A stretch of DNA of 64,000 nucleotides from Bacteroidota bacterium (GCA_025963715.1 JAOQAG010000019.1:15330-79329), one strand, 5' to 3'; counted from the first letter of the stretch, positions 35,464 to 59,711 are shown. Notes: a model not told the origin generated them from the sequence alone. Made by a program: numbers and translations.

Positions 35464-35496
35464 GGTACGTATGTGGTTCAACACCATGCCTAAACA

Positions 35497-35563
35497 ATAT
35501 AAAGTTCAGGAACGTGGCTTAGCTTTTAAAGATTAGGCCCCTTTGATATTTGTTCAGGAACTT
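35497..35563 (+). repeat. Left subterminal repeats, consensus T(A/T)TAAAG(A/T)(A/T)(C/T)AGGAACGT
   Basis: 35497-35515, 35524-35542 and a degenerate copy near 35546-35563. Confidence 0.65.
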
Positions 35564-35635
35564 TTCTGTCAGAAAAACGTATAGATAAGTAGAAGTCACC
35601 AATGGGTGACATTTTTATTTATAATAATTAAAAAG

Positions 35636-35890
35636 ATGAAAGAAAAGAAACTTGAATCAATTTTCATTAGACCTAATGAAGACAAAGACTTAGCCTATCG
35701 GTCAGTTAAAACACTTGGTTATGAATTCTTGGTTTCACTTATGCCTTCTGAAGGGCGTGAAGAAGCAGCGTGGGCAGTTCCAAATATTGAAGAGTTGAAA
35801 AAAATCTGCAGTATGCTTAACGATGATTTTTGGTATAAAATCCATCCGCTGGAAACGATTATTGATTGGGAAAGCTTAAATCTGAATTAA
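35636..35890 (+). CDS. Hypothetical protein (84 aa)
   Basis: ATG at 35636 within the tracked ORF. Confidence 0.6.
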   Translation: MKEKKLESIFIRPNEDKDLAYRSVKTLGYEFLVSLMPSEGREEAAWAVPNIEELKKICSMLNDDFWYKIHPLETIIDWESLNLN

Positions 35891-35935
35891 AGGATAAGGT
35901 GCTGTATTCCTTTAATATGGCGTTGACTAGGGATT

Positions 35936-36721
35936 TTATGCTTCATTACATATCCGCACAAATCTATCTCCAATAGATGTAAAGGTAAATTTATTACTAT
36001 TTGAAACATCCACGTCCACATCAATCTCTGTGTTTTCTGGATCATCCGAAGTTTTTTCGGCTTTTACCAGGACATCTGTTTCCCACATTAATAGTCCAAG
36101 AGAAATTAAATTTGAAATACTGAACTCTAATTCTAACCTGGGAATTTTCATTTCTTTAGATAGACGAATAACACTATAAGAAAAACGGCTTAGCTTATAG
36201 CCTTCAGGAGTGTTTGGCGGTGCTAAAAATTGGTAGAGCTTAGCATTAGTTCTCTGTTCATGTTTGACAGTATCTTCTGCATGCACTTTTTTTCTCCTTT
36301 CCGACAGGTCTTTATGAAGGTCATCTAGGAGTTTGGCTTCTAGAGAGGATAGTTTATTGAGTATGGAAATGCAATTTTGTTGAAAAACAACATCCTTATC
36401 TCCTTGAAGGATATGAGCTACCAGATTTGACCATTTGTCTTGTAAACTCTCTTCTTCTTCAAGGGAGCTATATTCAATTAAAGGAGCTAGGATTTTTAAG
36501 GAAACTTTTTGTGGATTAATTTTATTTTGTTCTAGCTTTTCAACGGCTTTGGAAAATATTTTTATTTGATTAGTAAACCGCCTTAACCTTACCTGATCCG
36601 CAATCATTTCACCAACCTCGTTGAATGATGGTCCAAACAAGGTTTTCAAGAGTGCTTCACTCTTATCCAGCAATTGCTTTGGAAGGTTTAAATTCTCGAA
36701 TATTTTTTCAATATTAGCCAT
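35936..36721 (-). CDS. Abi-alpha/DUF4393-like protein
   Basis: GEMIADQVRLRR, KILAPLIEYSSLEEEESLQDKWSNL, C-terminal wHTH SISNLISLGL..FTSIGDRFV. Confidence 0.75.
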   Translation of the reverse strand: MANIEKIFENLNLPKQLLDKSEALLKTLFGPSFNEVGEMIADQVRLRRFTNQIKIFSKAVEKLEQNKINPQKVSLKILAPLIEYSSLEEEESLQDKWSNLVAHILQGDKDVVFQQNCISILNKLSSLEAKLLDDLHKDLSERRKKVHAEDTVKHEQRTNAKLYQFLAPPNTPEGYKLSRFSYSVIRLSKEMKIPRLELEFSISNLISLGLLMWETDVLVKAEKTSDDPENTEIDVDVDVSNSNKFTFTSIGDRFVRICNEA

Positions 36722-36813
36722 GTTATAACTATCTATTGGGTAAAGGTATTACATTAAGGTAAGAGTTTGATAATTTATCTGATTTTACATAGACAGTTCT
36801 ACTGACTTAACTT

Positions 36814-37281
36814 TTAAAGATTAGCCCAAATTTCATCTGTATCCAATTCGCTATCTTTTTTTTGGGGAGGTTTATCACAATCTCGAACTTTAAACTTACC
36901 TTTTCCAGTATCTAAAACAAGTTCTGCAACCCCTTCATGCTTAGACCATTTAATTTTGATTTGACTTTTTATAAAATATTTTGATAGTAGTTCTAAAACA
37001 TATTTTCTTGAATCTAGAACGTGATCGGCATCTTCTCCTTCAGCGCCTCCTGCAGCATAGACTTTGACAATATTTACATTAGAACATTCAGCCAAACTTT
37101 TAATAATAAAATCTTCCAAGTCATTATCATTTTCAGGATTGGATTGATGACGCATATAACCACATTTACCTATAGGATCAGATATCGCAACACTTATGCA
37201 AGGACCCATTCCTCCTGAACTTATTATTTGTGGTGATTCGGCTTTTGCATCCTCACCCATTTCTATTGTTATGTCAAACAT
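36814..37281 (-). CDS. CheD-like deamidase fold protein
   Basis: MGPCISVAISDPIGKCGYMRH has the Cys...His spacing of CheD; KVYAAGGA resembles the CheD K.AGGA motif. Confidence 0.65.
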   Translation of the reverse strand: MFDITIEMGEDAKAESPQIISSGGMGPCISVAISDPIGKCGYMRHQSNPENDNDLEDFIIKSLAECSNVNIVKVYAAGGAEGEDADHVLDSRKYVLELLSKYFIKSQIKIKWSKHEGVAELVLDTGKGKFKVRDCDKPPQKKDSELDTDEIWANL

Positions 37282-37349
37282 GCAATTTCAGTATTTATAG
37301 GCGGAAGATATTCAAAAATAAAGAAAATATATACCTTTATATAAGTACA

Positions 37350-38198
37350 CTATACTTTTCGTTTATTTATTAGCCCCTTTAATTCTTCTACAGAGAGATA
37401 TCTTCCTTCATGTTTTCTATGTAACATTCTATGACAGTTTGCGCATACCAAGGCTAAATCACTCACTCTTGTCCATCTTTCAACTCCTTTACCAATAGGA
37501 GTTTTATGATGACATTCTATAAATCCTTGTCCCACACCAGGATAATAGACTTCAAAATTAAAATCGCATGATTCGCATTTAAGAGTGGTGGCTTGATTTT
37601 TAGCCAAGGTTATAATGCTCATATCACGCTCATAGTATCGGTGTTCTCGCATTTCCTTCTTTTGAGCCCCCTCTAGCACTCCATAATTATCATCAGCATC
37701 AACAAGATTCAGCTTACTTGTAATGATATTATCAAACGATTGCCATATGATTGATTGTTTCCTTTCTTTATTGATTTTAGCAAATCCTTTTCGAGTAACT
37801 ATTAAATCTACCTTGAAGCATAAACCTCTGCTGACTTTTGAAAAATTAAGATTAATTCGACTAGATAGAATCCCTGGACTTTCTTTTCCAAGTACACGAA
37901 CTAATCTTGTATTTGGATAATTTGTAGCATTCTCATCAATGTATACATCATTATCAACTGGTGTTACAAGATGAGTAAGATAGGTTCCCTTTTGAATTCC
38001 TAAGTTGCTGTTTACCGTTTGAAATAAAAGTATTATGTCATCAACACGAGGCAACGATACATTTATTCCATAATGCTCAGACCAATTAAGAGGAAAGATA
38101 CTTCCTACTTCCTGATTCTCATAGGCCCAGCTATTTCCATTATCTCTTTTGACATTTTTGACCCACTTTATATGAGTTTGATCGTATTTCCCATCCAT
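37350..38198 (-). CDS. HNH endonuclease (McrA-like C-terminus)
   Basis: CESCDF..GFIECHHKTP..DLALVCANCHRMLH. Confidence 0.85.
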   Translation of the reverse strand: MDGKYDQTHIKWVKNVKRDNGNSWAYENQEVGSIFPLNWSEHYGINVSLPRVDDIILLFQTVNSNLGIQKGTYLTHLVTPVDNDVYIDENATNYPNTRLVRVLGKESPGILSSRINLNFSKVSRGLCFKVDLIVTRKGFAKINKERKQSIIWQSFDNIITSKLNLVDADDNYGVLEGAQKKEMREHRYYERDMSIITLAKNQATTLKCESCDFNFEVYYPGVGQGFIECHHKTPIGKGVERWTRVSDLALVCANCHRMLHRKHEGRYLSVEELKGLINKRKV

Positions 38199-38377
38199 AT
38201 TAAAAGGTTATTTATAACAGTTTTAGAACAAAGACTACACAGTTTTCAGTGTAGTACTACTTGGATACATTGGATTAATTAGAACTAAAATATCAGTTTG
38301 AAACCAGCTATTCTCACATGTGAAATTTACTGGTTTGCCATTTACTTGGATTCTTTTCCCTGACATGTATGTAAATT

Positions 38378-40170: not shown

Positions 40171-41025
40171 TTATCCTTTACCGCCATTAAGCACAGCCAA
40201 TTTATAACCAATACCGAATCCTATCCATGGTTTATTTGCATATATCCATTTATAAGAATCGCCAGAAACTGGAAAATCAAAACCACCTAAAATTCCAATA
40301 TTTAGATCTCGATATGAAATTAAAAATGCGCCACCAAAACCTATCCCCATTTCATTTGATTTTATTTGAACTTTTCTTCTTGTATTATCAGAAGATATGG
40401 CGATTACAGTTGGAGCAGCAAATATTGCTGCTGTAAATGATAAGCTATTTGTAGTTTTAAGTTTATCTTGATAGAACCTCGTTCGTCCCCACTTTCTTCC
40501 AACATAAACTCCACCTGTTATGTCTGATGAGAAGTCATTTGATATAGAATCTTTTTTATTACCAAATCTATACTTGAATGGTATTGTTGTGACTCCAAAC
40601 TCTGTAGTTGCATATGACAGTGAAATAAATTTAATTGGAATGCACATTTGAGTTCTTTTATCTATTCTTAAATAGTAAAAGTGTTTATCATCTAATAATA
40701 CTGTTGAATTAATGGTATTGGTATCTTTTTGGCATTTTAAATCAGCATCATTAGGTTTAATAGACCAGAAATCAACTTTCAACATGGTGGGATCTTTATC
40801 ATCCTGTACAACAGATGCCTTTAAGCCTTTTTTAGAATTACAAAGAGCTTTGGGGATCGCTGTTTTTTTAGCACTATCAATAGTATAATATATTGTTGGT
40901 GGAAGATAATTTTTTTTACAAATACGTTTATGCATTTTTATTTTATAATGAAAACCTGTTTGCAATTGCGCTTGCATACTACATACCGCAACTACACATA
41001 TTATTGTAAGAATAAATTTTCTCAT
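40171..41025 (-). CDS. Hypothetical secreted/outer-membrane protein
   Basis: Signal peptide; amphipathic beta strands ending WIGFGIGYKL. Confidence 0.7.
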   Translation of the reverse strand: MRKFILTIICVVAVCSMQAQLQTGFHYKIKMHKRICKKNYLPPTIYYTIDSAKKTAIPKALCNSKKGLKASVVQDDKDPTMLKVDFWSIKPNDADLKCQKDTNTINSTVLLDDKHFYYLRIDKRTQMCIPIKFISLSYATTEFGVTTIPFKYRFGNKKDSISNDFSSDITGGVYVGRKWGRTRFYQDKLKTTNSLSFTAAIFAAPTVIAISSDNTRRKVQIKSNEMGIGFGGAFLISYRDLNIGILGGFDFPVSGDSYKWIYANKPWIGFGIGYKLAVLNGGKG

Positions 41026-41028
41026 GTC

Positions 41029-41508
41029 TTATTTTATTAAATATTGGAAATACACGTAGCCTACAACAGCACCGAATTGAATTTGTGCCCATTTGGAGTC
41101 TATTAATTTTAGGACAGTTACTTTGTCGCCAAATTTCAACGTATATGATATAACCTCATCAGTTGATGGTGTTTTGCGAATATTTAAGCTTTTAGTATTT
41201 ACATGATATATTTGCCCAGCTGCAATATGGTTATTTGAAGATGTGCTTGTTTTAGGTTTTGACGCTGAAGGCGTTGGTTTAGTTTGTGTATATTTAGGAG
41301 TGGGTGCAGGAGCTGAATAGCTGCATACTCCACAACTACCTCCAGAATTACAGTGCGCGCAATAATTGCAGGATTTACAAGCTGTACAATTTGCAATGCC
41401 TGTGCATCTACCAAAATCTTTTGCTTTTGTTTCTGTGGTGCTAAAAAAAGCAATTAAACTACCACCAATTATAATAGCAAGAATGGCTATGATTTTAATT
41501 TTTTTCAT
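41029..41508 (-). CDS. Secreted Cys-rich plus SH3b domain protein; start reassigned to MKKIK
   Basis: 8-Cys motif, Pro/Thr/Ser linker, LNIRKTPST..GDKV..WAQI..GYVY. Confidence 0.8.
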   Translation of the reverse strand: MKKIKIIAILAIIIGGSLIAFFSTTETKAKDFGRCTGIANCTACKSCNYCAHCNSGGSCGVCSYSAPAPTPKYTQTKPTPSASKPKTSTSSNNHIAAGQIYHVNTKSLNIRKTPSTDEVISYTLKFGDKVTVLKLIDSKWAQIQFGAVVGYVYFQYLIK

Positions 41509-41684
41509 TAGATTATTTGCATGAATTAGGTTTGTAAATGTGAAAAACTGATTCAATCTTATGACAATATTCTTACCTGCACAAGTTTTTAAAGCAATAT
41601 TTAATCTAGAAAATATTACCATTAGCGTTTGCCGAAAAAGGCAATAAATCAAAAATAATTTCGGCAAGTTCGACTAAAAAAATT

Positions 41685-41860
41685 ACATTTCAATGGACAC
41701 TTTTCGACTTCCAGGACATCGAAATAAAGGTCATTTTTAGAAATGGCTTCAAAAAAATTATCCAATGAAAACACCCGTTTTCATTGGATAATAGAGAATA
41801 AGAAGTTTATGTACTCAAATAATCCATATTTCAATGGACACTTTTTGACTTCCAAGACAA
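41685..41860. repeat. 35-bp repeat x2 (41685-41719, 41826-41860) flanking a 15-bp-stem hairpin (41757-41792); third copy at 62559-62593
   Basis: ACATTTCA(A/C)TGGACACTTTTCGACTTCCAGGACAT. Confidence 0.8.
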
Positions 41861-41885: not shown

Positions 41886-42674
41886 CTATTTCAGCCATTC
41901 GATCTTTGTAATAACAGGTTCGGTGCTTAAGAATGCCATTGAAGCCTTGTTGCTACTATCTATCACTTTGGGTTCTATTGTTATTTTAGCCGCTCTTTCT
42001 ATATTGTCTGGAATTAAATTGAGTATGTATCCCGATCCGAAAATAAAGACACATTGAGATTTTTTGGGACCACCATCGCCTGAGAAAATAGTGGCTACGG
42101 TAGAATATCCTTTACCGTCATCAAATAAGCGCAATGTTTCCGTTGTCTCATCTTCTTTCTTTATATCAAGAAAGTAGCCTCGCTCATCTTTTTTTCTTGA
42201 CATCTTTATCAACATGCCATTATATTCTTTTACTTGTGACGTTTCAGAATTAGCATCACCAACAAGCTCAATTTTAGAAACAACTCTTTCTGCTCCGTTC
42301 ATTGAATATGTCATATTCACTTTTCTACCTAAGTATTTTGGATTAGCAACATACTGATCTTTTTCTTTGAGCAGCACATCTTTTGTCTCTGCATTCATTA
42401 CAAGATCACCTTTGACCATGATATGACCAGGAATGTCACTTGAGCCTTGACAAAAAGCAAAGTTCAACCTTTTGCCATTATCCAATATAATACCTGCATC
42501 TGACGAACCTTGGTATGATCCACACCACATGTTTTTAATCGTACCTGATACAATCGAATCTGCTTTAATAACTTCAACAGTTGGTTCTGCAGCATTTGTA
42601 TTTGTGCCTTGGTTTCCATTGCATGAAGAATGAAAGGCAAGAATAATTAATGAGTAAGCAATTGTTTTTTTCAT
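41886..42674 (-). CDS. Hypothetical lipoprotein
   Basis: Lipobox HSSC; overlaps the stop of the upstream XRE gene. Confidence 0.72.
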   Translation of the reverse strand: MKKTIAYSLIILAFHSSCNGNQGTNTNAAEPTVEVIKADSIVSGTIKNMWCGSYQGSSDAGIILDNGKRLNFAFCQGSSDIPGHIMVKGDLVMNAETKDVLLKEKDQYVANPKYLGRKVNMTYSMNGAERVVSKIELVGDANSETSQVKEYNGMLIKMSRKKDERGYFLDIKKEDETTETLRLFDDGKGYSTVATIFSGDGGPKKSQCVFIFGSGYILNLIPDNIERAAKITIEPKVIDSSNKASMAFLSTEPVITKIEWLK

Positions 42675-43057
42675 TTTTTTCGAATTTTAGTTTTACTGGT
42701 TTGTTTTAATAATGAATCAACCACACCCTTCAAATGTGCATTCTCTGACTTTAAAGATTCGATATGGGCTTCCTGTGCTTCAAAAGTTTTTTGCTCGAAT
42801 TTTGAACGATGGTTGATGACCAATCCATTCGCTTTCTTATTATGCGTCAGATTGAAAACAATGTGCTCATTACCGATTAACTCAATTATTGATACATCGA
42901 GCACATCTGCTATTTTTAAAAGTTTGGAAAAAAGAATGTCTCCACCATTCTCGAACTGCGAGACTCCGCGCTGCGACCAGCCTATGGCCTCAGCTACATA
43001 CTCCTGACTATAGTTAAGGCTTTCACGAATGAGTTTTGTGTTCCTGGAAACATTCAT
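42671..43057 (-). CDS. XRE-family HTH regulator
   Basis: IRESLNYSQEYVAEAIGWSQRGVSQFENG..LLKIADVLDV. Confidence 0.88.
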   Translation of the reverse strand: MNVSRNTKLIRESLNYSQEYVAEAIGWSQRGVSQFENGGDILFSKLLKIADVLDVSIIELIGNEHIVFNLTHNKKANGLVINHRSKFEQKTFEAQEAHIESLKSENAHLKGVVDSLLKQTSKTKIRKK

Positions 43058-43140
43058 TTTTTTTGAAATAAAAGTATTGCAAGGCCAGTGAATAAATTAT
43101 TCGATGAGTGAATAGAATATTTCGATAAAAGTGTTAGTGA

Positions 43141-43545
43141 TTAATAAAACTTGCGGTTTATAAAATCTGAAATATGATTGGCCAGATCAATAGGTGTTGA
43201 ATCTTCGGCAAGCTTGGATTTACCGTAATCAGGATGATTAAAGTTGACAGTAAAAATCCATAGTGTTTCTAATAAGTCTAAACCAAACCAGTCAATGATT
43301 GAATGAATTGTACTTGCGCCTTTTTCTATATTAACAAGTACAGGACTACCATCACGCTTATAACGCCATTCTTCATACCATTCTGGCATATCTTCAAACG
43401 GCCACAAGATGAAATAAGCATCGAAAGCTTCCTCACCAATTACATGCATGTTTACTTTTACAGGTTTCTCAACGAAGCCTTCTGGCAAATGACTTATCTT
43501 GTCTGCGAATTCAAGTAATCTTCTTTTTTGTAATTTCTCTTCCAT
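43141..43545 (-). CDS. Hypothetical protein
   Basis: 134-aa ORF at the end of the transposase-led gene run. Confidence 0.65.
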   Translation of the reverse strand: MEEKLQKRRLLEFADKISHLPEGFVEKPVKVNMHVIGEEAFDAYFILWPFEDMPEWYEEWRYKRDGSPVLVNIEKGASTIHSIIDWFGLDLLETLWIFTVNFNHPDYGKSKLAEDSTPIDLANHISDFINRKFY

Positions 43546-43561
43546 AGTTTTATTATTTAGT

Positions 43562-43699
43562 TTAACATATCCATTCTAAAGCGCCTTTTACATATCCTTT
43601 TACAAATGCTTCCCGCTCGTAGCGTGTCAGCCAATTTCTGTTTGGACCAGCAGATTTCTTGGCCATTGTTTTGATTTGCCTTAGTTGTTTTTTGCGCAT
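43562..43699 (-). CDS. 45-aa hypothetical protein (not in ORF track)
   Basis: MRKKQLRQIKTMAKKSAGPNRNWLTRYEREAFVKGYVKGALEWIC*; starts 1 bp after the upstream stop. Confidence 0.55.
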   Translation of the reverse strand: MRKKQLRQIKTMAKKSAGPNRNWLTRYEREAFVKGYVKGALEWIC

Positions 43700-43700
43700 A

Positions 43701-43922
43701 TTAATTGTAGTTATAGTGTTTTAAATGCATTAATAGAACTTCTTTCCAGACTTCCTGATCCACAATATTTATCCTGGTTGGAATCTCAAGCGGCTTAAAT
43801 TCTAAACCCTCTTTAAGTGATTTTCCATTCTCAAGTTGAACAAAATTGCCAGGTGTCGATAAAAATCTGGCAAAGTGATTCCAAATAAACAGATCGAACT
43901 CAACTTTCTTAAGTGTCTTCAT
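43701..43922 (-). CDS. Hypothetical protein (73 aa)
   Basis: ATGA-coupled to the upstream 52-aa ORF. Confidence 0.6.
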   Translation of the reverse strand: MKTLKKVEFDLFIWNHFARFLSTPGNFVQLENGKSLKEGLEFKPLEIPTRINIVDQEVWKEVLLMHLKHYNYN

Positions 43923-44077
43923 TGAAAGTCCTCCAGAAATAAATGGTTTTGCCTGATAAAATAAAAGGCTTTTTTCGCATCTTTGGTTGCTTTTATGGCT
44001 TCCTCTTCAGGCAAGATGTCCCGAAAAAGATTTAATAGCTCATGATCTAATGCTGTGGGTTTGTAATTTTTTTTCAT
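43919..44077 (-). CDS. 52-aa hypothetical protein (not in ORF track)
   Basis: MKKNYKPTALDHELLNLFRDILPEEEAIKATKDAKKAFYFIRQNHLFLEDFQ*. Confidence 0.6.
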   Translation of the reverse strand: MKKNYKPTALDHELLNLFRDILPEEEAIKATKDAKKAFYFIRQNHLFLEDFQ

Positions 44078-44100
44078 TTTTATTTTGTTTTTATTGGTTA

Positions 44101-45597
44101 CTATTTTGATACAATTCTTTCAAGAGCTTCAACGATTCTCACCATTGCTACAACATCCATGTGACAGTACTCAAGCAGGTCTCGCTTGGTTTGTATTTGT
44201 TCCTTATAAGAAAGCTTATGAAAGTTCTCGTATTGTGCCATCGCTAAAGCACCATTATTAATCCGAAGGTCTTTATAAGATAATTCAGGCACCAATGCAG
44301 GTAATACGCGTTTTATACTATGTGAGCCTTGAAATGAAGGATGATAGTAATGCCGTTTAGCAAAAGGTTCCATAAGGTCTTTTAGTCTGCTAATACGTTC
44401 ATTAATTTCTTCAGCATATTCTGGAAATTTAATGGCCAACTCTTTTAAACGGAGACTCTCAAATCCCTGATTATATACAATGATGCTTCCTTCCTCATCT
44501 GTATCCATTAAAAGGTTCTCTATGAATGCCCTTCTAGGATCAGATCCAGGTTTAGCCAGGAATTCTTTCCGTATCAAATCTGATTTAATATTCTCCTGGC
44601 GAAGAATTGAATATTGAAAACACATTTGCTGATAAGGCTTGGTGCCTTTGTATATTGGTATAGCAGGCATAAAACTCTCAAAATCCATAAAGATTAGAGG
44701 CTCATTGAGATTTAAGTATTGTAAAAAATCTCTGATGGCTTTATGATTTATTTTAGGCTGGCCATTTGATACCGCCTGAGCTTCTATCCATTGACTTTCA
44801 CTTAATTTCGTGTCTTTGGGAATCTGGCTCACTTCATTTATTCCTTGTTCTGATAATTCATCTGCTTTATCTTTCCTAAGCCTTCCAAGATGCCAAATAG
44901 ATTTAGGTGATACATTTCTCCAGCAATGAATCATGAAACCGCAAGGACGAGGTTTGAAGCAATGGCTGCCAATTGAAATTTTAGGCGGCATGCTACTATT
45001 CAATGTAGTTTCTATTTGTTGCAAATGTCTTTCGATGAGAACTTGCGCCTGCTTCGCCCTTGTAGTTACATTTTCAATAATAAATAATTTATTGATATCT
45101 AAAGTGTCGCCCAATACATATGCTTTATTCAAATACGCTATATGGATTTCTGTATCCTTATCATAGCCAGCCTGTTTCAATACATAGTACTGAAAGGCAA
45201 CATCAAGAATCTGCTCTGGAAGCTTTATAGAAGTTGAGCTTTTAACTTCAATAAGTTTATTTTTCTTTTGTGAAGTCACAAATATGTCTGCCTGGAAACG
45301 ATAATTACCGTCAGGTGTTGCAAATGCTGGCTCATAAAATATTTGGTTCTCAGAGTTGAGCAATCTTTTTGTTTCTTCAATCAAATCAAAAGATCTGATC
45401 TTGCCACCTTGAGTTACATCAATTCCACCTCGATAAAGTTGTCTGGCAACAATACCCACAGCGGTTCCTTTATCCATTATTGCTTGTTGTTCAATAGTAA
45501 TAGCAGGGCGAAGCTCAGTGGCTGCACAATGCATAAAAATTGCTTTAAGGCACTGAGTACCTTTCATAAATGTAGATTTCGAGATTTTATATTTCAT
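44101..45597 (-). CDS. DUF2779 protein: Cas4-like PD-(D/E)xK domain plus DnaQ/RNase H-like domain
   Basis: ISKS.FMKG.QC, QADI..LIEVKSS..DVAFQ, CGFMIHC, MDFES, YNQGFE, SIKRVLP, YCHMDV. Confidence 0.85.
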   Translation of the reverse strand: MKYKISKSTFMKGTQCLKAIFMHCAATELRPAITIEQQAIMDKGTAVGIVARQLYRGGIDVTQGGKIRSFDLIEETKRLLNSENQIFYEPAFATPDGNYRFQADIFVTSQKKNKLIEVKSSTSIKLPEQILDVAFQYYVLKQAGYDKDTEIHIAYLNKAYVLGDTLDINKLFIIENVTTRAKQAQVLIERHLQQIETTLNSSMPPKISIGSHCFKPRPCGFMIHCWRNVSPKSIWHLGRLRKDKADELSEQGINEVSQIPKDTKLSESQWIEAQAVSNGQPKINHKAIRDFLQYLNLNEPLIFMDFESFMPAIPIYKGTKPYQQMCFQYSILRQENIKSDLIRKEFLAKPGSDPRRAFIENLLMDTDEEGSIIVYNQGFESLRLKELAIKFPEYAEEINERISRLKDLMEPFAKRHYYHPSFQGSHSIKRVLPALVPELSYKDLRINNGALAMAQYENFHKLSYKEQIQTKRDLLEYCHMDVVAMVRIVEALERIVSK

Positions 45598-46523
45598 TAG
45601 GCCGCGATTTTAGAGTAAGTGTGTGTTAATGATGGTAGGCGTTTTAAAAGTTCATGAAAGCCATAATCATAATCGTACCTGAAGGTGTGACGAAAAGAAA
45701 ATTCCGAGAGATAATTAGGAAGTGTTTTTTGCGTAACATTTCTATATGTTCCTTCAATCATTGACTTGAAATTTTTAAATGCATTCTCTGCAGAATTCGT
45801 TGATGCATTCTCTCTGGTGAATTCATGTTTGTGATGATTAACCATAACATGGTCATATCCCAAGGATTTGAGTTTGTTGTACGCACCCCAAGTATCTGTT
45901 GAAATTGTTGTAGAGACAGGCACGTTAGCTGTTATTATCGGAATAATAGTATCAGCATCTGCTGAAGGAATAACAAACATTTTACACTTACCTCTTCGCT
46001 CAATTATGGCAAGTATTGTAGTGTTGCGTTGATTTCCCCTTCCACGACCCATGTAAAAATGACGCCCCATTCCTTTCCCGCCAGTTGGAACGTAGCTTTC
46101 ATCTATTTCAACTACAGTGTTTGCAAATTCAAAATCCAAACACTCATCCATTAGCTGACGAATAGCATTTAAAACCCTGAAAACCGTAGGGTATGAAAAG
46201 CCATAAGTGCGATGAATTTCTTTAGCTGAAATACCGTTTCGGGAATAAACCATCTTAAACATAATTTCAAACCAATCATTAATCGCAACATGTGTATGGT
46301 CGAAAATTGAATCTACCATTGGATACACATGCTTTAAACATTTAGAACAGATAAATGCTTTCTTACCCCGTAGTCGATGATAATATCTATCAATAGGAGC
46401 ATCACAATTTGGAGAAAAGCAAATCCTGTCTTCGCTCATACGGAATTCCAAGAGGGCCTTGAGACAATGCTCCTCCGTACCATATTTTTTCTTAAAAACT
46501 TGAGTGGTCATGAATTTTTGCAT
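45597..46523 (-). CDS. IS1595 family DDE transposase (ISXO2-like domain)
   Basis: N-terminal Zn ribbon C..PNC..CSKC, VEIDESYV, IERRG, STDTWGAY, H..VNH, TNSAENAF, YLSEFSFR. Confidence 0.93.
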   Translation of the reverse strand: MQKFMTTQVFKKKYGTEEHCLKALLEFRMSEDRICFSPNCDAPIDRYYHRLRGKKAFICSKCLKHVYPMVDSIFDHTHVAINDWFEIMFKMVYSRNGISAKEIHRTYGFSYPTVFRVLNAIRQLMDECLDFEFANTVVEIDESYVPTGGKGMGRHFYMGRGRGNQRNTTILAIIERRGKCKMFVIPSADADTIIPIITANVPVSTTISTDTWGAYNKLKSLGYDHVMVNHHKHEFTRENASTNSAENAFKNFKSMIEGTYRNVTQKTLPNYLSEFSFRHTFRYDYDYGFHELLKRLPSLTHTYSKIAA

Positions 46524-46558
46524 AAGTTTTCTTTTTTTAGAAATTTGTCTTAAAAATG

Positions 46559-46590
46559 TTTGCTTTATATAATAATTGTTTATACATTTG
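46559..46590 (+). promoter_or_regulatory. Canonical Bacteroidetes primary-sigma promoter pointing away from the transposase
   Basis: TTTG (46559-62), 20-nt spacer, TACATTTG (46583-90). Confidence 0.7.
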
Positions 46591-46596
46591 CCTTAA

Positions 46597-46727
46597 CAAA
46601 AGGGAAGATTCCAAAAAGAAGATCCCCGTCCAAGCAAAAAGCCCAGATATACTCGCAAGGTTATTAGGTAAAAAGCTTACAGGACACAAGAATAGACCTG
46701 AATTGCGCCAACAATTCAGGTTTTTTT
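46597..46727 (+). ncRNA. Candidate ~130-nt small RNA
   Basis: Consensus promoter upstream, intrinsic terminator downstream, no ATG in between. Confidence 0.45.
46696..46727 (+). terminator. Intrinsic terminator
   Basis: ACCTGAATTG-CGCCAA-CAATTCAGGT stem followed by a T run. Confidence 0.75.
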
Positions 46728-46741
46728 ATGTCTAAAGCCTA

Positions 46742-47308: not shown

Positions 47309-47357
47309 GCGAAGCTAGTTAAAATATTTGACATTTCCTAATAAAATCATCACATTT

Positions 47358-47376
47358 TTAAGACCAACGGTCTTAA
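47358..47376. promoter_or_regulatory. Operator-like palindrome TTAAGACC-AAC-GGTCTTAA
   Basis: Perfect 8-bp arms between divergent genes. Confidence 0.45.
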
Positions 47377-47551
47377 TCTTTATAATAATTATAAGACGTT
47401 TTTAAAACATTTCTTTGTGTTTTTTATAAGGGCAATAAGGGATTTGAGAAAGTTCATACAGTGATAGGGACAGATATAAAAAAAATAAAATCGGAGGAGA
47501 ATAAATAGGTAGATTTTTCAAAAATCACAACTATTTATGGAAAAAGGATAA

Positions 47552-50398: not shown

Positions 50399-52414
50399 TT
50401 ATGATTTGTTGAATCCTTGCTTTTGTAATTTTAATTTTTCATAAAGTTCGAAATCCAACAGAGCTGCTATCGTATTTATATGCTTTATTGTGAACCCTTT
50501 CGGCTTATTCTTGCTGTGCAATTCTGCTTCGAGCTCTCTCCGCAGCGAATCCAATGCGGATGTGTTTTCATATTCTATTATTAAAGAAGTCATGCAATTT
50601 TCTATACACTTTTCAATCCAATTTAAGTACGGCTTCAAATCGCTTCTTCCATTTATCGGCTTTAATAAATTATCAATGCTTTCGGGATTAGATTCATAAA
50701 TTACAATTGTTTTCGAGGTTTCTTTTTCATCATTATTATCAACATTAATAGGTGGAGCAAGTGAAATTGTTTTTAATTGTGGTAATAATGGTTCAAGCTC
50801 ATCTTTTAGTGTCATATCAATAGCTGCAACTATACCTAAGTTCTCCTTTTTCCATAGAGGTTTTACATAAATTTTGGCAATAGATACAAATCCATTAAAT
50901 GATCCCCAATAATTCATTGCATAATTATAGGAAGGAATATAAAACTGTTCGCAATACCCTAACAGATCTTCAAAACTTTTATACTTTAAAACAAATACAG
51001 CAAAATTTGAAATGATTACTGACTTAATTGAGCGAATATCGAAGGCCGCTTGCTTTCCGTTTATAAAATTATAAAATGTAATCAGATCAAGTCTTTGCCT
51101 GGATTTCTCTCCAAATAGTTCCGTTACCCTGTTTCCTACATCAATAATAAGAGTATTAATATCTTCGCCAGAAACTTCCCCAAAACTATGTTTGTTCTTA
51201 TTCCATAAAAGATTAACAATATACTCATGCAGTTTTTTTTGTTCGGAGTCCAGTTTATTGGATTTATGCAAATATTTTATTTCGTCACCTTGTAAATGGT
51301 AATCTTTAAGGCACGCAGCAATATCGGCTGCAGTTGGTTCCTGGCTAGAGCTTTTGAATTGAGATAATTTCTGAGAGAAGTTTTCAATTCGTTTCTCTAT
51401 TTTTTCTATAATTTTAGTTTTGTAACTATTGTGATAATAAGAGTTTGAAACCTGGATAACTTCTCTTTGCATATCATCAATTTCAAATTGAATGCTAGGA
51501 GCAACCTTCTCCGAACTTCTATATAAAAACTGCATTAATTCAGGCATTTTAGAAGAGGTTCTTAAAATGGAATTTATATCCTCTTCAGCAATGCCTTTAG
51601 AATCCAGCAACGCCTTTACTTTTTCTGCTGGATTTATTGGCGCGTGTTTAGAAATTATGCTTTTAAGTTGAATAAATGATTTACCAACAAGATTAAGTGC
51701 ATACTCGATATTTTCCCCCTTCTTATTGTTTTTGTATTTTTTTTCTTCGGAAACGGCTAATACAGCGCTAACATATGAACGCCAAGATTTATACAATTCC
51801 CTAACCGCATTATCTATTGTAAGCTCATCATTATCTTTGATAAGCATTTTTGCAATGATGTTTGAATACAAAAGCCCTTTAAATGCATTTATAACTTCAT
51901 CTCTCTTTAATACATCAGTCGAAACACGATAATCATCCTGAACATTTATATTAAGATTACTTTTTTCACTCGATGATCCTAACTCTGAAAACGTTACAAA
52001 TTGTTTCTGATATTTTTCGATTGTCTTAGCTTCCAGGGAAGGTAAGCTCTTTGCAATGATTTGGTTCCTCTCGTTCGCATCTCTAAATACAAATACTGGT
52101 GAACAAAAATTTAAATAGATGTTATCCTTATAACCAATGACGGCTTGATCTCCTTTATTATCAATGGGGATACTATCATGTATATAGCCATTATTAATTC
52201 CAATGTAAAATATAAGCGCATCATCTTCAACAGGTAAAGATTCTGCTTCAGGCAAAAAATTGTATAATAGCAAAAGACTCTGCAACGGACTAGCCGTATT
52301 ATAGAAGAATCTTTTGCTACCAAATTTTCTCTCTTTATAGAAAGAACCAGGTGATATACTTTCACCTGAAAATATTGAATTGAAATTAAACGAGTTTACT
52401 GGTATATATAACAT
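50399..52414 (-). CDS. Large hypothetical protein coupled to the helicase
   Basis: 671 aa, starts 2 bp after the helicase stop. Confidence 0.8.
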   Translation of the reverse strand: MLYIPVNSFNFNSIFSGESISPGSFYKERKFGSKRFFYNTASPLQSLLLLYNFLPEAESLPVEDDALIFYIGINNGYIHDSIPIDNKGDQAVIGYKDNIYLNFCSPVFVFRDANERNQIIAKSLPSLEAKTIEKYQKQFVTFSELGSSSEKSNLNINVQDDYRVSTDVLKRDEVINAFKGLLYSNIIAKMLIKDNDELTIDNAVRELYKSWRSYVSAVLAVSEEKKYKNNKKGENIEYALNLVGKSFIQLKSIISKHAPINPAEKVKALLDSKGIAEEDINSILRTSSKMPELMQFLYRSSEKVAPSIQFEIDDMQREVIQVSNSYYHNSYKTKIIEKIEKRIENFSQKLSQFKSSSQEPTAADIAACLKDYHLQGDEIKYLHKSNKLDSEQKKLHEYIVNLLWNKNKHSFGEVSGEDINTLIIDVGNRVTELFGEKSRQRLDLITFYNFINGKQAAFDIRSIKSVIISNFAVFVLKYKSFEDLLGYCEQFYIPSYNYAMNYWGSFNGFVSIAKIYVKPLWKKENLGIVAAIDMTLKDELEPLLPQLKTISLAPPINVDNNDEKETSKTIVIYESNPESIDNLLKPINGRSDLKPYLNWIEKCIENCMTSLIIEYENTSALDSLRRELEAELHSKNKPKGFTIKHINTIAALLDFELYEKLKLQKQGFNKS

Positions 52415-52416
52415 GG

Positions 52417-53529
52417 TTATCTTTTAGGCCTAAAATCATTTTTTTCATATAATCCATTTGGAATTGGCTCCAAATAAGAGTGAAAGTCATTGGTGCAGGT
52501 AATGGTTAATTCCTGACTTGCCCTGGTACATGCAACATACAAAGGTGTTTTTTCTTTTATTTTTGAATTTTGCTTTGAACAAAAAGGTAAAAACACATTT
52601 TCAAATTGCAATCCTTTCGCACTATGATAAGTAAGAATTTTTGGATTATCCGTCATGAAATCTAAAGTCATAACATCTGGGTTTGCTGCAATGTCTTCTT
52701 CATCATCACTATCACTTTTTTTCTTACGATATTTTACTTCGCACGTGATATCTCTGGCAAGAAGTTCATTAAACAATCTTTCTGCTGCTTCATTATCTGG
52801 CAATAATATACCAACATCTCTTAATCCCTTAGAGGTTATCTGATTTATAATAAATTCTATTTCGGCTGTATCTGATTTACAAACCGCAATAGTTGGAATA
52901 CGTGCTCCTTCTTTTTTACATTGTGATTCTAACGGATCACTGGTTGAATTTAAATGCTGAGCAAATCGGGCAATTTTTTTAGGAAGTCTATGGTTGATCT
53001 TTAAATTACGTATTGGCAAGTTTAAAGTTGCTGCAATTTCTTCTACCGATAAAGTTTTTTCCTTTTTTTCTGTTTTGGTGGTATAATCTCTAACAGTTTT
53101 AATAGGATATAACTTTTGCGCAGTGTCACCGAATAATGCCATGGAGATAGTTGCATTTTTTTGGAATGATTCTATTTCTTCTAAAGTGAAATCTTGAACT
53201 TCATCTACAATTAAATGAGTTACAGTTGGCATGCCAGCATATTTCCACTGGTCATAAGTCATTACTTTTTTCCAGCTATCCTTTGCATATGGGTTATCCG
53301 TGAGAACATCCTTCATGAATTTTTTTAGGGCCTTAGTATATACTATTATCCGACAATCCTCGCCAGTGGCTAAAACTTCAATAGCCCTCCATATGGCAAG
53401 AATGGTTTTCCCACTCCCTGCACAACCTTTTACAACATAGGAATTATTAAGGCTCATTCGCTTGATATTGTACTGATTATCATCTAGTTCACTTTCAGAT
53501 ATGAACCAACTTTCTCTTTGTGCTGCCAT
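52417..53529 (-). CDS. Minimal superfamily-1 (UvrD-like) helicase
   Basis: GCAGSGKT, IVDEVQD, FGDTAQ, NHR, TYHSAKGLQFENV, LYVACTRA. Confidence 0.88.
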   Translation of the reverse strand: MAAQRESWFISESELDDNQYNIKRMSLNNSYVVKGCAGSGKTILAIWRAIEVLATGEDCRIIVYTKALKKFMKDVLTDNPYAKDSWKKVMTYDQWKYAGMPTVTHLIVDEVQDFTLEEIESFQKNATISMALFGDTAQKLYPIKTVRDYTTKTEKKEKTLSVEEIAATLNLPIRNLKINHRLPKKIARFAQHLNSTSDPLESQCKKEGARIPTIAVCKSDTAEIEFIINQITSKGLRDVGILLPDNEAAERLFNELLARDITCEVKYRKKKSDSDDEEDIAANPDVMTLDFMTDNPKILTYHSAKGLQFENVFLPFCSKQNSKIKEKTPLYVACTRASQELTITCTNDFHSYLEPIPNGLYEKNDFRPKR

Positions 53530-53609: not shown

Positions 53610-53951
53610 ATGGATAACACAATTGGCAAAAATCTAAAAGCCCTCAGAGATAGCCTCGGACTTAGTCAAGAGCAGGTAGCTAATTACTTAACGATTGAGA
53701 GGGTGATGATTAGTTATTATGAAAATGGCACTCGATCAGTGCCAATACCAACTTTAATGAAGCTTGCAGATTTATTTGGGGTTGAAACAAAAGACTTATT
53801 AGAAGAAAACCAAAAACAATCTCAACTCAATAGTGCATTTGCATTTAGAGCAAGCAATGTTTCTGAAAAAGATATGGAAGTCATTGCTTCATTTAAAAGA
53901 ATAGCAAGAAATTATATTAAAGCAAAAGAAAAATTAAAATCAAATGATTGA
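53610..53951 (+). CDS. XRE-family HTH regulator
   Basis: LKALRDSLGLSQEQVA..ISYYENG..LMKLADLF; C-terminal AFR motif. Confidence 0.9.
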   Translation: MDNTIGKNLKALRDSLGLSQEQVANYLTIERVMISYYENGTRSVPIPTLMKLADLFGVETKDLLEENQKQSQLNSAFAFRASNVSEKDMEVIASFKRIARNYIKAKEKLKSND

Positions 53952-54651
53952 GCGTCTAAAAATGGAAAAAAGAGCAATTGCCTTTCGCGAAAGGTATAAT
54001 ATTGGTCCAACGGAGGCAGTAAAATATTATGATTTACTGGAACGGTTAGGAATTATCACCCTTTTTGCAGAACTATCAGATGGTGTTTCTGGAATGGCTA
54101 TTAAAGTTGATGATTATAGGTTTATGCTTATTAACCGCAATATGGTTATGGGTAAGCAACATTTCACTATTGGTCATGAACTATACCACTTGTATGAGCA
54201 GGAAGATTTTTCCTTTAAGGTATCAAGTGTTGAAAATTTTTCAAGACAGGATAAAGAGGAGTATTTAGCAGATCTTTTTGCTTCACATCTTCTTTTGCCT
54301 GGTGCAGGCATCCTTGCACTGGTGCCTGATGGAGAATTGGCAAAAAATAAAATTGACATAACTACTATTCTTAAGATAGAACAATATTTTCTATGCTCAA
54401 GGATTGCCGTTTTGTATCGTTTAAAAGAACTAGGATTAATTTCAGACGATTACTCTGAGCAGTTTAAAACGGGTATTGCAAAATCTGCTCTTGACCATGA
54501 TTACCCACGTGATTTGTACTTCGCAACAACAGAAGATAAATTTTTCGGGACTGATTACATTTCTACGATTGAAACCCTTTATGAAAAGGGCATAATGAAA
54601 GAAATTGATTATATAACCAGTATGCAAGATATTGGAATCGCTAAAATTTAA
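53944..54651 (+). CDS. ImmA/IrrE family Zn metallopeptidase
   Basis: FTIGHELYH (HExxH), E..ADLFASHLLLP. Confidence 0.9.
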   Translation: MIERLKMEKRAIAFRERYNIGPTEAVKYYDLLERLGIITLFAELSDGVSGMAIKVDDYRFMLINRNMVMGKQHFTIGHELYHLYEQEDFSFKVSSVENFSRQDKEEYLADLFASHLLLPGAGILALVPDGELAKNKIDITTILKIEQYFLCSRIAVLYRLKELGLISDDYSEQFKTGIAKSALDHDYPRDLYFATTEDKFFGTDYISTIETLYEKGIMKEIDYITSMQDIGIAKI

Positions 54652-54659
54652 TATGCTTT

Positions 54660-55214
54660 ATGACAGAACTATTACTACTCGCGGATTCCGATATACTAAT
54701 CCATTTTTTTAGAGGTAACAAATTAAAATTACTGCCTAAGATTCTTCCTAACAAGATTTGCCTGCTGGATGCCGTTGTTGCAGAGCTGCAGTATGGGAGA
54801 TCTCCGACTCTTTATGATCGGATAATGAAGGAAATTGGCAGCTCTATAATTTTGGAAAAATTTACTGACAAGCCCTTGATCTATAACGAATGGGTGAAGT
54901 TAGTACGAGCAGATATTGGCTCAGGTGAAAGTGCATGTTTAGCAATGGCTAGGTATGAAGGGCATCACATCGCGAGTTCGAATCTAAGAGATATTAACGA
55001 TTATTGTAAGGACAACAAAATCAGGGTGTACACAACTATGGACCTAATTCATGAAGCTTATACTAAAGGTCTATTAACTGAAGATGATTGTGATTCCTTT
55101 ATAATTGATGTTCTAGATGCAGGTAGCAGACTTCCCTGCAGCACATTTGCTGAATACCTTGCAAAACATGCATCCAAAAGTCCCTGGCGGTCATATGACA
55201 GGAGAGTTGCATAA
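54660..55214 (+). CDS. PIN-domain protein
   Basis: LLADSDILIHF, VVAEL, GSGESACLA, IASSN..D. Confidence 0.78.
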   Translation: MTELLLLADSDILIHFFRGNKLKLLPKILPNKICLLDAVVAELQYGRSPTLYDRIMKEIGSSIILEKFTDKPLIYNEWVKLVRADIGSGESACLAMARYEGHHIASSNLRDINDYCKDNKIRVYTTMDLIHEAYTKGLLTEDDCDSFIIDVLDAGSRLPCSTFAEYLAKHASKSPWRSYDRRVA

Positions 55215-55727: not shown

Positions 55728-55794
55728 AAAATTTAATTTATATTTGTCGGATTAGAATTAATAAAAGGATAAACCGATTTAATATTTAAACGAT

Positions 55795-56205: not shown

Positions 56206-56212
56206 ATAATGC

Positions 56213-58443: not shown

Positions 58444-58452
58444 GCTTACCCC

Positions 58453-58509
58453 AATATGAGCACAAAAAAAGAGGAATCTACTTGATTCCTCTTTTTTTGT
58501 GCTCATATT
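58453..58509. terminator. Perfect 26-bp-stem hairpin, probably a bidirectional terminator
   Basis: AATATGAGCACAAAAAAAGAGGAATC-TACTT-GATTCCTCTTTTTTTGTGCTCATATT. Confidence 0.7.
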
Positions 58510-58626
58510 TACTTTACTTCAAGATTTAGTAGTTAATAAAAATTTGCTGCTAAACATTTGAAAGAACACCCAGGCTTAGCAAATACTTGGATTATAAGTT
58601 ATCTTTACTACAAAAAACAACATAAT

Positions 58627-59619
58627 ATGACTGAAGACGAAATTCGTAATAGTTGGATTTACCAAACCACGGGTGAGATCAATCTTCATCAACCTGGAGT
58701 TGATATTGGAACACAGCCAATTCGTGTTGTACATGCTTTGACAATTTATCTTTATCAGCGGACTAATCCTGAATTTTTTAATGAAATTTTATCTGGTAAA
58801 GGTGCAGGGGATAATATTGATCTGGTGGTTGGTGAAGAACCCATTACAATTGAATCTGGTGGTAAAAGAACCCCAAGAGTGCATCTGAATACAAAAAAAA
58901 TTGAACTGCACGAAACTTTTCTTTCTTATTTGTGGGCTACAATTTATTCGATATTTGTTCTTCATTCAGAAACCATTGATTATCCTGAGATAAATGCAAG
59001 GGTTGGATTGATAAGATATCCAATTTCAGAAGCAAACATTGCTTCCGCAAAAGAATTGTTTGCATATGCAAAAAAAATAATACGATTTTTTGATACTTGG
59101 GATAAGGAAACACTTCCCAATCCTGAAGTGTTTCCAGCTGAAAACAGGCACTATGTGCGACAAACTTGCGCCTTTTATACAGAAGCTGTGAAATTTATTC
59201 TATGTCATGAATATACGCACTTAAGAGACCATAGTCATAAATACGCAAATGCTGATGTATCACATTTTCTTGAATTTGAAAAGGAAGCGGATAACAATGC
59301 AATAGATATGATGAAAAAGGGAATTACACCCATCAATCAGTTAGCAGTCGAAAATGGCATTATTTTCGGTCTTTTATCCATGTTTTTTTTCGGTGCTAAT
59401 ACTAGTGGAGGACTGACACATCCTAATGTGGAGGATCGTTTAATAAATGCAATTGAGCGACTTGATTTAATTGACAATCAATATCCCTGGCAATTAGCGT
59501 ATGTTGCTTTTAAACTTTGGGATGAACAATTTGAACTTAATCTAGAATGGAAAAACTTGCCAACATACCAAGAGAAATTCCATGACATTATACTACAAAT
59601 AAAACAAAGGTCCGCATAA
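58627..59619 (+). CDS. Phage exclusion protein Lit-like metallopeptidase (U49); ATG start reassigned
   Basis: FILCHEYTH, EKEADNNA, THP..EDRL. Confidence 0.72.
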   Translation: MTEDEIRNSWIYQTTGEINLHQPGVDIGTQPIRVVHALTIYLYQRTNPEFFNEILSGKGAGDNIDLVVGEEPITIESGGKRTPRVHLNTKKIELHETFLSYLWATIYSIFVLHSETIDYPEINARVGLIRYPISEANIASAKELFAYAKKIIRFFDTWDKETLPNPEVFPAENRHYVRQTCAFYTEAVKFILCHEYTHLRDHSHKYANADVSHFLEFEKEADNNAIDMMKKGITPINQLAVENGIIFGLLSMFFFGANTSGGLTHPNVEDRLINAIERLDLIDNQYPWQLAYVAFKLWDEQFELNLEWKNLPTYQEKFHDIILQIKQRSA

Positions 59620-59626
59620 CCTCTCA

Positions 59627-59673
59627 ACGTTTCCAATCTTTATAAAGCCCAGGAACGTTCCTATTCTTTAAAA
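59627..59673 (-). repeat. Right subterminal repeats
   Basis: Reverse complements TTTTAAAGAATAGGAACGT (59655-73) and TTATAAAGATTGGAAACGT (59627-45). Confidence 0.65.
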
Positions 59674-59711
59674 CTTTAGGACTAAGAGCGGTTCTAAACT
59701 ACATACGTACC

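Follow-up and report, generated by a model that had tools for sequence, protein, structure and literature searches.

A 24-kb element in a Bacteroidota bacterium as a probable IS1595-family unit transposon with a conserved core and defence-like cargo

The stretch of DNA analysed here, 64 kb long and hereafter called the window (Bacteroidota bacterium GCA_025963715.1 JAOQAG010000019.1:15330-79329, positions being counted from its first letter), contains at 35464-59711 an element of 24,248 bp that is bounded by terminal inverted repeats (TIRs), flanked by a target-site duplication (TSD) and located inside a gene for an AAA_13 ATPase. Some 30 non-nested open reading frames (ORFs) of at least 60 aa lie within it. 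Its core is a triad of genes in the order ORF-A (about 185 aa), a transposase of the insertion sequence (IS) family IS1595 and, immediately after the transposase, a DUF2779 protein (Table 1).

Table 1. Features of the element and of the interrupted gene, with positions in the window
Feature	Position	Strand	Evidence or remark
Interrupted AAA_13 ATPase gene, C-terminal part	33866-35463	-	target
Left TSD copy	35456-35463	.	CAATTTAT, identical to 59712-59719
Left TIR	35464-35485	+	GGTACGTATGTGGTTCAACACC; end downstream of the transposase operon
Subterminal 40-nt repeat (family D5)	35498-35537	.	(T)TCAGGAACG motif; 75% identical to 59641-59680
Abi_alpha-family protein, 261 aa	35936-36721	-	Pfam Abi_alpha 4.6e-24; weak PADLOC PDC-S47 match
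155-aa protein and 282-aa HNH endonuclease (HNH at 37350-38198)	36814-38198	-	Pfam HNH 2.1e-6; PADLOC mREase_IV 3.2e-6 and ZorE-like matches
Overlapping pair, 383 aa and 210 aa	38378-40158	-	210-aa protein: HEPN-like match Cas_Csm6_HEPN 0.0022, below threshold; no PADLOC match
Semi-conserved genes: 284-aa secreted protein and 212-aa Cys-rich SH3_3 protein	40171-41667	-	SH3_3 1.1e-6; 64-70% nucleotide identity to L088
Conserved backbone	41886-47490	-	ORF-A, transposase, DUF2779, small ORFs, 134-aa protein, helix-turn-helix (HTH) regulator, 262-aa lipoprotein-like protein
HTH_3 (Xre-type) regulator, 128 aa	42671-43057	-	Pfam HTH_3 3.7e-13; 41-45% identical in L001 and L002
Conserved 134-aa protein	43141-43545	-	homologues in L001 and L015; no Pfam match
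DUF2779 protein, 498 aa	44101-45597	-	Pfam DUF2779 2.3e-41, Cas_Cas4 1.7e-4, RNase_H_2 1.9e-4; PADLOC Cas4 8.3e-6
IS1595-family DDE transposase, 308 aa	45597-46523	-	Pfam DDE_Tnp_IS1595, NCBIfam and AlphaFold2 model
ORF-A, 188 aa	46742-47308	-	just upstream of the transposase throughout the clade
Short UvrD/GajB-like helicase, 370 aa, and 671-aa partner	50399-53529	-	Pfam UvrD_C, Viral_helicase1; PADLOC C3a187 2.5e-23, GajB 9e-15
CapH-like HTH, CapP-like M78 peptidase and PIN-like 184-aa protein	53610-55214	+	PADLOC capH 4.4e-12, capP 3.4e-20, PDC-S70 8.6e-6; Pfam HTH_3, Peptidase_M78
Overlapping pair, 173 aa and 390 aa	56753-58443	+	no Pfam or PADLOC match
Lit-like peptidase, 353 aa	58558-59619	+	PADLOC Lit 3.2e-18
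Subterminal 40-nt repeat	59641-59680	.	contains palindrome AGGAACGTTCCT
Right TIR	59690-59711	-	reverse complement GGTACGTATGTAGTTTAGAACC; end upstream of ORF-A
Right TSD copy	59712-59719	.	CAATTTAT
Interrupted AAA_13 ATPase gene, N-terminal part	59720-60362	-	target

The two 22-nt inverted ends match at 18 of 22 positions, the outer 11 being identical, and the 8-bp direct repeat is exact on both flanks. The left boundary (35456-35485) reads ...CAATTTAT followed directly by GGTACGTATGTGGTTCAACACC..., and the right one (59690-59719) reads ...GGTTCTAAACTACATACGTACC followed directly by CAATTTAT.... The 11-mer GGTACGTATGT occurs exactly twice in the window, in mutually inverted orientation; when one mismatch is allowed, three matches are found against 0.30 expected, and none of 100 shuffles attained three. 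An end-like match at 63754, with one mismatch, was dismissed as due to chance, since it lies in unrelated sequence and the inner part of the repeat is absent. In no other pair of the window does an exact 8-bp direct repeat go together with 16 or more of 22 inverted matches, and an inverted match of 18/22 was not attained in any of 40 composition-preserving block shuffles. Inside the ends, the subterminal repeats are accompanied by an extra GTTCAGGAAC copy close to 35555. In silico deletion of the element, together with one copy of the TSD, joins 59720-60362 to 33866-35463 in frame, giving a single ORF of 746 aa. The rejoined protein aligns with Pfam AAA_13 (E 3.3e-34) from residue 36 to residue 717, equivalent to profile positions 24-695 of 713, so that the match crosses the junction.

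Taking into account that the window is metagenomic and represented by short-read contigs only, the element could be an assembly artefact, that is, a chimeric contig joining unrelated DNA at repeats. We regard this as extremely unlikely. The sole public run with this DNA, a soil metagenome, was assembled independently in Logan from the same reads, and the independent assembler yields one contig of 33,141 bp with a uniform depth of 25, in which both junctions are collinear. Furthermore, the junctions coincide exactly with the inverted ends and the 8-bp duplication, removal of the element gives a full-length gene, and the same architecture is found in other assemblies and genomes. Misassembly is thus rejected on present evidence, both junctions lying on one contig of an independent assembly. 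The element is not present in two other runs of the same study.

IS1595 transposases have an N-terminal zinc ribbon, absent only in the IS1016 group, and catalytic D, D and E (or N/H) residues followed by K or R. The transposase of the element matches Pfam PF12762 (DDE_Tnp_IS1595) with E 2.5e-30 and 105.9 bits (cut-off 27) and NCBIfam transpos_IS1595 with 159.5 bits (cut-off 75), and an alignment of 17 homologues shows that D141, D210, E246 and K253, as well as C35, C40, C59 and C62, are invariant. The match to Pfam Zn_ribbon_IS1595 is weak (E 0.007; 16.7 bits, under the cut-off of 25.4), and the putative zinc-ribbon region is confidently modelled by AlphaFold2. The whole model (predicted local distance difference test, pLDDT, 87.3; predicted template modelling score, pTM, 0.85) has an RNase H-like DDE fold that matches retroviral integrases, ISCth4, Mos1 and Sleeping Beauty. 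The catalytic domain, the D-D-E-K residues, the 8-bp duplication and GG-type ends, all of them present here, are features that define the IS1595 family at the sequence level (PMC8101967). From the transposase gene it is 10.1 kb to the left end and 13.2 kb to the right one, there is no end-like motif near it, and its stop codon overlaps the start of the DUF2779 gene (TAATG). No second transposase, integrase or resolvase was found among the ORFs scanned with Pfam (here and below, all non-nested ORFs of at least 90 aa and one of 73 aa). A first-pass annotation, made from the sequence alone, had described 22-bp imperfect TIRs with an exact 8-bp TSD, an in-frame gene interruption, about 30 cargo ORFs and one central IS1595 transposase without IS ends alongside; all of this agrees with the results given so far, the number of ORFs being that of the non-nested ones of at least 60 aa.

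Homologues of the transposase with 46-62% identity were recovered from genomes and metagenomes, all from Bacteroidota where a name is given. Three of their loci (designated L with a number) hold complete elements with the triad: L001, of 14,723 bp, has perfect 22-nt ends, GGTACGTATCCACTTTAGCACC, and the duplication TTAATTAT; L002, of 10,892 bp, has imperfect 22-nt ends and the duplication TTTTTTAA; and L015, of 14,100 bp, has ends matching at 14/22 positions and the duplication TAATCTTT. All four duplications, including that of the window, are at least 7/8 A+T. L005 (8769-15982; 7.2 kb) also carries the triad between ends matching at 17/22 positions, and is counted only as a probable element because a duplication is absent, its flanks being TAAATAAT and TGATTTGA; either the insertion is old or, alternatively, two copies may have recombined to produce it. 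One end was seen in L006, 3.5 kb upstream of the transposase, and a single candidate end or none in L003, L011, L014 and L090, loci that stop at 10 kb or at contig ends.

The ends of the large elements follow the pattern GG(T/C)AC...TTTAG; GGTACGTAT...TTTAG..ACC. The two ends of an element differ: at the one upstream of ORF-A, the inner repeat is also present as an inverted copy (TTTAGCACC/AGGTGCTAAA) and, about 30 nt inward, as a second direct copy; the window has instead the 40-nt subterminal repeat with the palindrome AGGAACGTTCCT. Ordinary IS1595 loci, with transposases at most 35% identical, measure 1.0-5.0 kb and have 8-bp duplications; GGCGATTATATACTTGAC and CGGAATTATGCACTTGACAA are examples of their ends. 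The layout GG....TAT..(A)CTT.A is common to these ordinary relatives and to the large elements, and because it is shared, the ends of the 24-kb element belong with this transposase family. As to the checks named in the first-pass annotation, other insertions with different 8-bp TSDs and variable cargo exist, namely the three complete elements, and the same kind of ends occurs on them with this transposase clade. In plasmid and phage collections only distant IS1595 transposases, of at most 34% identity, were found.

Among the ordinary relatives, L050 (128-5122; 4,995 bp) and L055 (1734-6776; 5,043 bp) are apparently one IS1595-type 'transporter IS' on two metagenome contigs, with identical perfect 20-nt ends, GGCGATTATGCACTTGACAA, and differing 8-bp duplications, AAAGAAAT and AAAAGTTT, which suggests recent activity of this relative. 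The passengers of L050 are two large ORFs of 696 and 513 aa.

The triad is present in all 15 distinct loci whose transposase is at least 46% identical to that of the window, and additionally in L008, at 32%; one of its genes is missing only where the contig stops first. Neither ORF-A nor DUF2779 was found in any other IS1595 locus recovered. L008 (9971-10873) is the most distant triad locus; its transposase is split into two reading frames, and is therefore probably a pseudogene, and its DUF2779 protein is devoid of the nuclease and exonuclease motifs described below.

A larger backbone is delimited by L088, a contig from another metagenome that is 86.8% identical in nucleotide sequence to window positions 41886-47490 and diverges beyond both edges. 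Since the similarity is confined to this interval, it defines a backbone of 5.6 kb and reveals turnover of cargo between close relatives. The gene order of the backbone is the same in L001, L002, L015, L090 and the contig of P0008. Also common to the closer members are two or three small ORFs and three proteins: one of about 135 aa, an HTH protein of the Xre type (about 125 aa) and one resembling lipoproteins (about 265 aa). The 134-aa protein of the window is 90% identical to a 41-residue fragment at the end of L009. At the site occupied in L088 by a gene for a single-stranded DNA-binding protein (SSB), the window has exactly there, in the 219 bp that separate the SH3 gene from the 262-aa gene, a 43-nt direct repeat in two copies (41676-41718 and 41817-41859; 84% identical), which could be either the scar of a deletion or a repeat with a regulatory role.

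DUF2779 proteins are uncharacterised fusions of a Cas4-like PD-(D/E)xK nuclease and a 3'-5' exonuclease (PMC3985635, PMC13621843). In the element, the N-terminal Cas4-like domain has D104, E117-x-K119 and the cysteines C16/C213/C219/C225, and the C-terminal RNase H-like 3'-5' exonuclease domain has D305-x-E307. An alignment shows that the motifs of both domains and the cluster of four cysteines are kept in the eight closest members. A search of Protein Data Bank (PDB) sequences with the DUF2779 profile gave no match at E values up to 1. ORF-A belongs to a rare family, with 94 representative clusters among 1.84 billion proteins, and its AlphaFold2 model, built with database homologues (pLDDT 78.5), consists of a long N-terminal helix and a C-terminal alpha/beta domain. 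A terminator-like hairpin, CCTGAATTG...CAATTCAGG, lies in 46524-46741, directly 3' of ORF-A; therefore, ORF-A seems to be transcribed separately from the transposase-DUF2779 pair.

Taken together, we consider it highly probable that positions 35464-59711 are a unit transposon of the IS1595 family, representing a distinct Bacteroidota clade in which a conserved core is accompanied by exchangeable defence-like cargo. The first-pass annotation had likewise called the element a 24.2-kb IS1595 unit transposon with a defence-like cargo, and the related elements bounded by TIRs and TSDs, the shared layout of the ends and the matches to defence models speak in its favour. We infer that the transposase moves the whole 24 kb; for transposition as such, the occurrence of several elements with different duplications is indirect evidence. 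Several observations weigh against this interpretation, or parts of it. No empty site, second copy or excision product was found in the single run available, which comprises contigs only and is uninformative on excision, and several cargo genes have no defence match at all. The SSB gene of the close relatives L088 and L001 is absent from the window. The ORF-A model has no significant fold match in the PDB, the best being winged helices of the MarR/Fur type (E about 1), and ORF-A-like proteins exist without a transposase (P0034). Finally, the E-x-K and D-x-E motifs of DUF2779 are degenerate in L005, L011 and L008, the three most distant members of the clade.

The exact duplication and the still open halves of the target gene suggest a recent insertion. 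On these grounds, the claim of the first-pass annotation that the transposon is recently active is plausible; neither an empty site nor a second copy was found. Some decay of the element has occurred, as its ends are imperfect (18/22) and the SSB gene of its relatives has been lost. These two features, together with the single copy known from a single run and the existence of decayed relatives, such as L008 with its broken transposase and L005 without a duplication, would fit an immobile fossil, an old insertion no longer able to move. However, the 8-bp duplication is exact, the target halves rejoin in frame, the reading frames of the transposase, DUF2779 and ORF-A are intact with the catalytic residues in place, and the four end mismatches fall in the inner half, where the two ends of the relatives differ too. 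We therefore judge a fossil rather unlikely.

If the element is a mobile unit transposon, its movement could proceed as follows. The DDE transposase would bind the 22-nt TIRs and the repeated subterminal motifs, pair both ends and join them to a target whose two strands are cut 8 bp apart, usually at an AT-rich 8-mer. Repair of the stagger would then produce the 8-bp duplication, in this case in the AAA_13 ATPase gene of a low-GC islet. As a best guess, ORF-A and DUF2779 would be accessory transposition proteins, given their joint inheritance with the transposase and, for DUF2779, the translational coupling to that gene. DUF2779 might cut or trim back the strand that is not transferred, or flaps of the donor, leading to a simple insertion, as TnsA does for Tn7; this TnsA-like role is a hypothesis. 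The core is flanked on both sides by exchangeable modules, mostly anti-phage or abortive-infection candidates. The first-pass annotation had attributed the movement to one small DDE enzyme acting on ends 10 and 13 kb away. The distances are right, whereas the single enzyme is probably an incomplete account, because the transposase is always accompanied by ORF-A and the coupled DUF2779.

It is quite possible, though short of probable, that these elements move by a heteromeric transposition machine new to the IS1595/Merlin superfamily, in which the transposase would require ORF-A as an end-binding or assembly factor and DUF2779 for TnsA-like processing of the second strand or of flaps, and which, as a cut-and-paste system built on a small IS enzyme, would move defence islands of 10-25 kb from one Bacteroidota genome to another. 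The size of the element would be a record for the family, and it is no mechanistic surprise, distances of 10-13 kb between enzyme and ends being not uncommon in DDE transposons (Tn7, Mu and Tn3, for instance).

It is also quite conceivable, without being the expected outcome, that the transposase alone moves the element, and that ORF-A and DUF2779 are long-standing passengers, with roles in DNA repair, anti-defence or self-protection, kept for the benefit of the element or its host. IS1595 relatives that consist of a single gene and show the same layout of ends and duplications of 8 bp transpose without partners (PMC8101967), DUF2779 proteins are widespread in bacteria as stand-alone proteins, and the hairpin after ORF-A sets this gene apart as a separate transcription unit. 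The passenger explanation is kept alive above all by the decay of the nuclease motifs in the distant members and by the ORF-A-like genes found elsewhere. Against it stand the strict order and spacing of the triad over transposase identities from 32% to 97%, while all else turns over, the overlap between the transposase stop and the DUF2779 start, and the absence of the triad from every other IS1595 relative recovered.

With regard to these ORF-A-like genes, P0034 (L091-L096) is a 158-aa protein encoded on 16 contigs, in none of which an IS1595 transposase adjoins it. In L096, it is followed by a run of small ORFs on the same strand that resembles a phage or satellite early region.

A further alternative assigns the element to a different class of integrative elements (such as satellites, integrative mobilisable elements or remnants of transposable prophages), in which the DDE enzyme would act only as integrase and an extrachromosomal, replicating or packaged stage would exist. 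The SSB gene of the relatives, the Xre-type repressor and the runs of small ORFs in the core, as in phage or satellite control regions, and the finding that ORF-A-like genes can sit in phage-like series of small ORFs (L096) could be understood in this manner. Nevertheless, no capsid, terminase, portal, replication-initiator, relaxase or conjugation domain was detected among the Pfam-scanned ORFs, phage and plasmid collections match only distant IS1595 transposases, the elements of 7-11 kb keep just the triad and a few genes, and the insertion sites are varied AT-rich 8-mers rather than a fixed attachment site. This alternative is accordingly very unlikely. More specifically, an element of the tyrosine or serine recombinase type (integrative and conjugative or mobilisable element, prophage or satellite) was rejected, given that the Pfam-scanned ORFs contain no integrase or resolvase domain, that the boundaries are inverted repeats with a duplication, and that a tRNA scan of the window found no tRNA gene; an Rfam scan of the element gave no match either. 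A Mu-like phage was rejected on gene content and duplication length, and a composite transposon because there is one central transposase, with no long terminal repeats and no internal end-like sequences.

Within the IS1595 family, the upper size in ISfinder is about 7.9 kb, and the end consensus of the ISNwi1 subgroup is 'ggnnatTAT', which the ends of the element may match. Passenger-carrying 'transporter IS' of the family, e.g., the ISNwi1+ and ISNha5 groups, are mentioned in a passage of PMC11891212 that cites Siguier, Gagnevin and Chandler 2009. The elements described here share with them a DDE_Tnp_IS1595 domain, a putative N-terminal zinc ribbon, the D-D-E residues with a downstream K, the 8-bp duplication, ends starting with GG and passengers placed inside the ends. 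Unlike them, the clade measures 7-24 kb, the simple relatives recovered being of 1.0-5.0 kb; it has a three-gene core and a regulator instead of a single transposase gene; its cargo flanks the core on both sides, with a predominance of defence-like modules; and its two ends are differentiated by subterminal repeats. Thus, where an IS1595 element would be expected to have one transposase gene within about 0.7-8 kb, the window element has 24.2 kb, its relatives 7.2-14.7 kb, and the triad is present.

A parallel in organisation may be drawn with the Tn7-like elements carrying defence cargo (Benler et al. 2021, PMC8649781), which are also unit transposons, tens of kb long, and have a core of several genes, a DDE enzyme associated with a nuclease of the restriction-endonuclease fold (TnsA there, the Cas4-like domain of DUF2779 here), asymmetric ends with several binding-site repeats (putative here) and a variable, defence-rich cargo. 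In contrast, TnsB is of the rve/Mu type, an unrelated family, no genes are shared, and the element is devoid of an AAA+ TnsC or a target selector (TnsD, TnsE or CRISPR); its duplication is of 8 bp, as opposed to 5 bp in Tn7, and its sites are varied and AT-rich instead of a fixed attachment site. Tn7-like identity was rejected on the 8-bp duplication and on the absence of rve, TnsC and TnsA domains among the Pfam matches. The eukaryotic Merlin transposons (PMC8101967) belong to the same DDE_Tnp_IS1595 superfamily and have duplications of 8-9 bp and ends starting with GG, although they are small, single-gene and cargo-free. Casposons (PMC4046053) are likewise self-contained prokaryotic transposons of 10-20 kb with inverted ends, a target duplication and, often, a Cas4-like nuclease beside the integrase; unlike the element, they use Cas1, which is not a DDE enzyme, and are self-synthesising, with a PolB polymerase. 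As to the size of the repeated target, the ORF-A clade has 8 bp and casposons about 14-15 bp.

These data extend the IS1595/Merlin superfamily from small IS and 'transporter IS' of a few kb to unit transposons that measure 7-24 kb and possess a multi-gene core of their own, and bear on the boundary between insertion sequences and transposons. They would also add a route for the movement and swapping of anti-phage genes in Bacteroidota, besides Tn7-like elements, integrative elements and satellites. The triad and its ends could be used as a marker for the discovery of new defence systems, and DUF2779, a widespread uncharacterised fusion, is placed in a context that can be tested genetically; should the heteromeric machine exist, a biochemical role would be assigned to this family for the first time. 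In practical terms, the value is modest: the group is rare, ORF-A forming about 94 clusters in a set of 1.84 billion representative proteins. In the literature searched, whose coverage was incomplete, no paper linking IS1595 with DUF2779 or describing such elements was found. The proposed ORF-A-transposase-DUF2779 machine is new, as is its putative service as a carrier of defence genes in Bacteroidota.

As regards the cargo, the analysis with PADLOC suggested by the first-pass annotation gave matches to Lit, capH, capP, C3a187, GajB and mREase_IV, and, judging from these profile matches, the label 'defence-like cargo' is a fair one. With Pfam and PADLOC, no complete canonical defence system was recognised in it. 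The cargo may defend its host against phage. Other defence-like genes are carried by the relatives: L001 has a type II methyltransferase accompanied by a restriction-like ATPase, plus an ATPase resembling AriA/AbiL; L002, Abi_alpha; L003, SIR2 and a cytosine methylase with Vsr and a HATPase protein; and the contig of P0008, RES and Beta_protein domains. The CapH/CapP module of the window is divergent from the helicase operon. The CapH/CapP-like pair, a PIN-like/DUF3368 protein, a short helicase resembling UvrD and a protein of some 670 aa that lacks any known domain recur together in three elements of the family (the window, L090 at 13331-17700, and the contig of P0008), and this module looks like a candidate defence system under the control of a regulator. 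A perfect 26-nt hairpin (I5), at 58453-58509, follows the pair of 173- and 390-aa proteins.

With respect to the site of insertion, the target region (33866-35463 and 59720-61954) is a small low-GC islet, with 27-28% GC against about 42% around it, which contains genes for the AAA_13 ATPase, a KTSC-domain protein and a DUF2130 protein, and adjoins a housekeeping NAD(P)H-hydrate epimerase/dehydratase gene. Because of this composition and these genes, the transposon may have landed in a pre-existing defence or accessory islet. The element of L002 also adjoins MksE-containing genes. Elsewhere in the window, at 1924-4395, there is an ORF resembling a TonB-dependent receptor with an N-terminus of the SusC/RagA type, which, together with lipoprotein-type signal peptides within the element, fits a Bacteroidota host.

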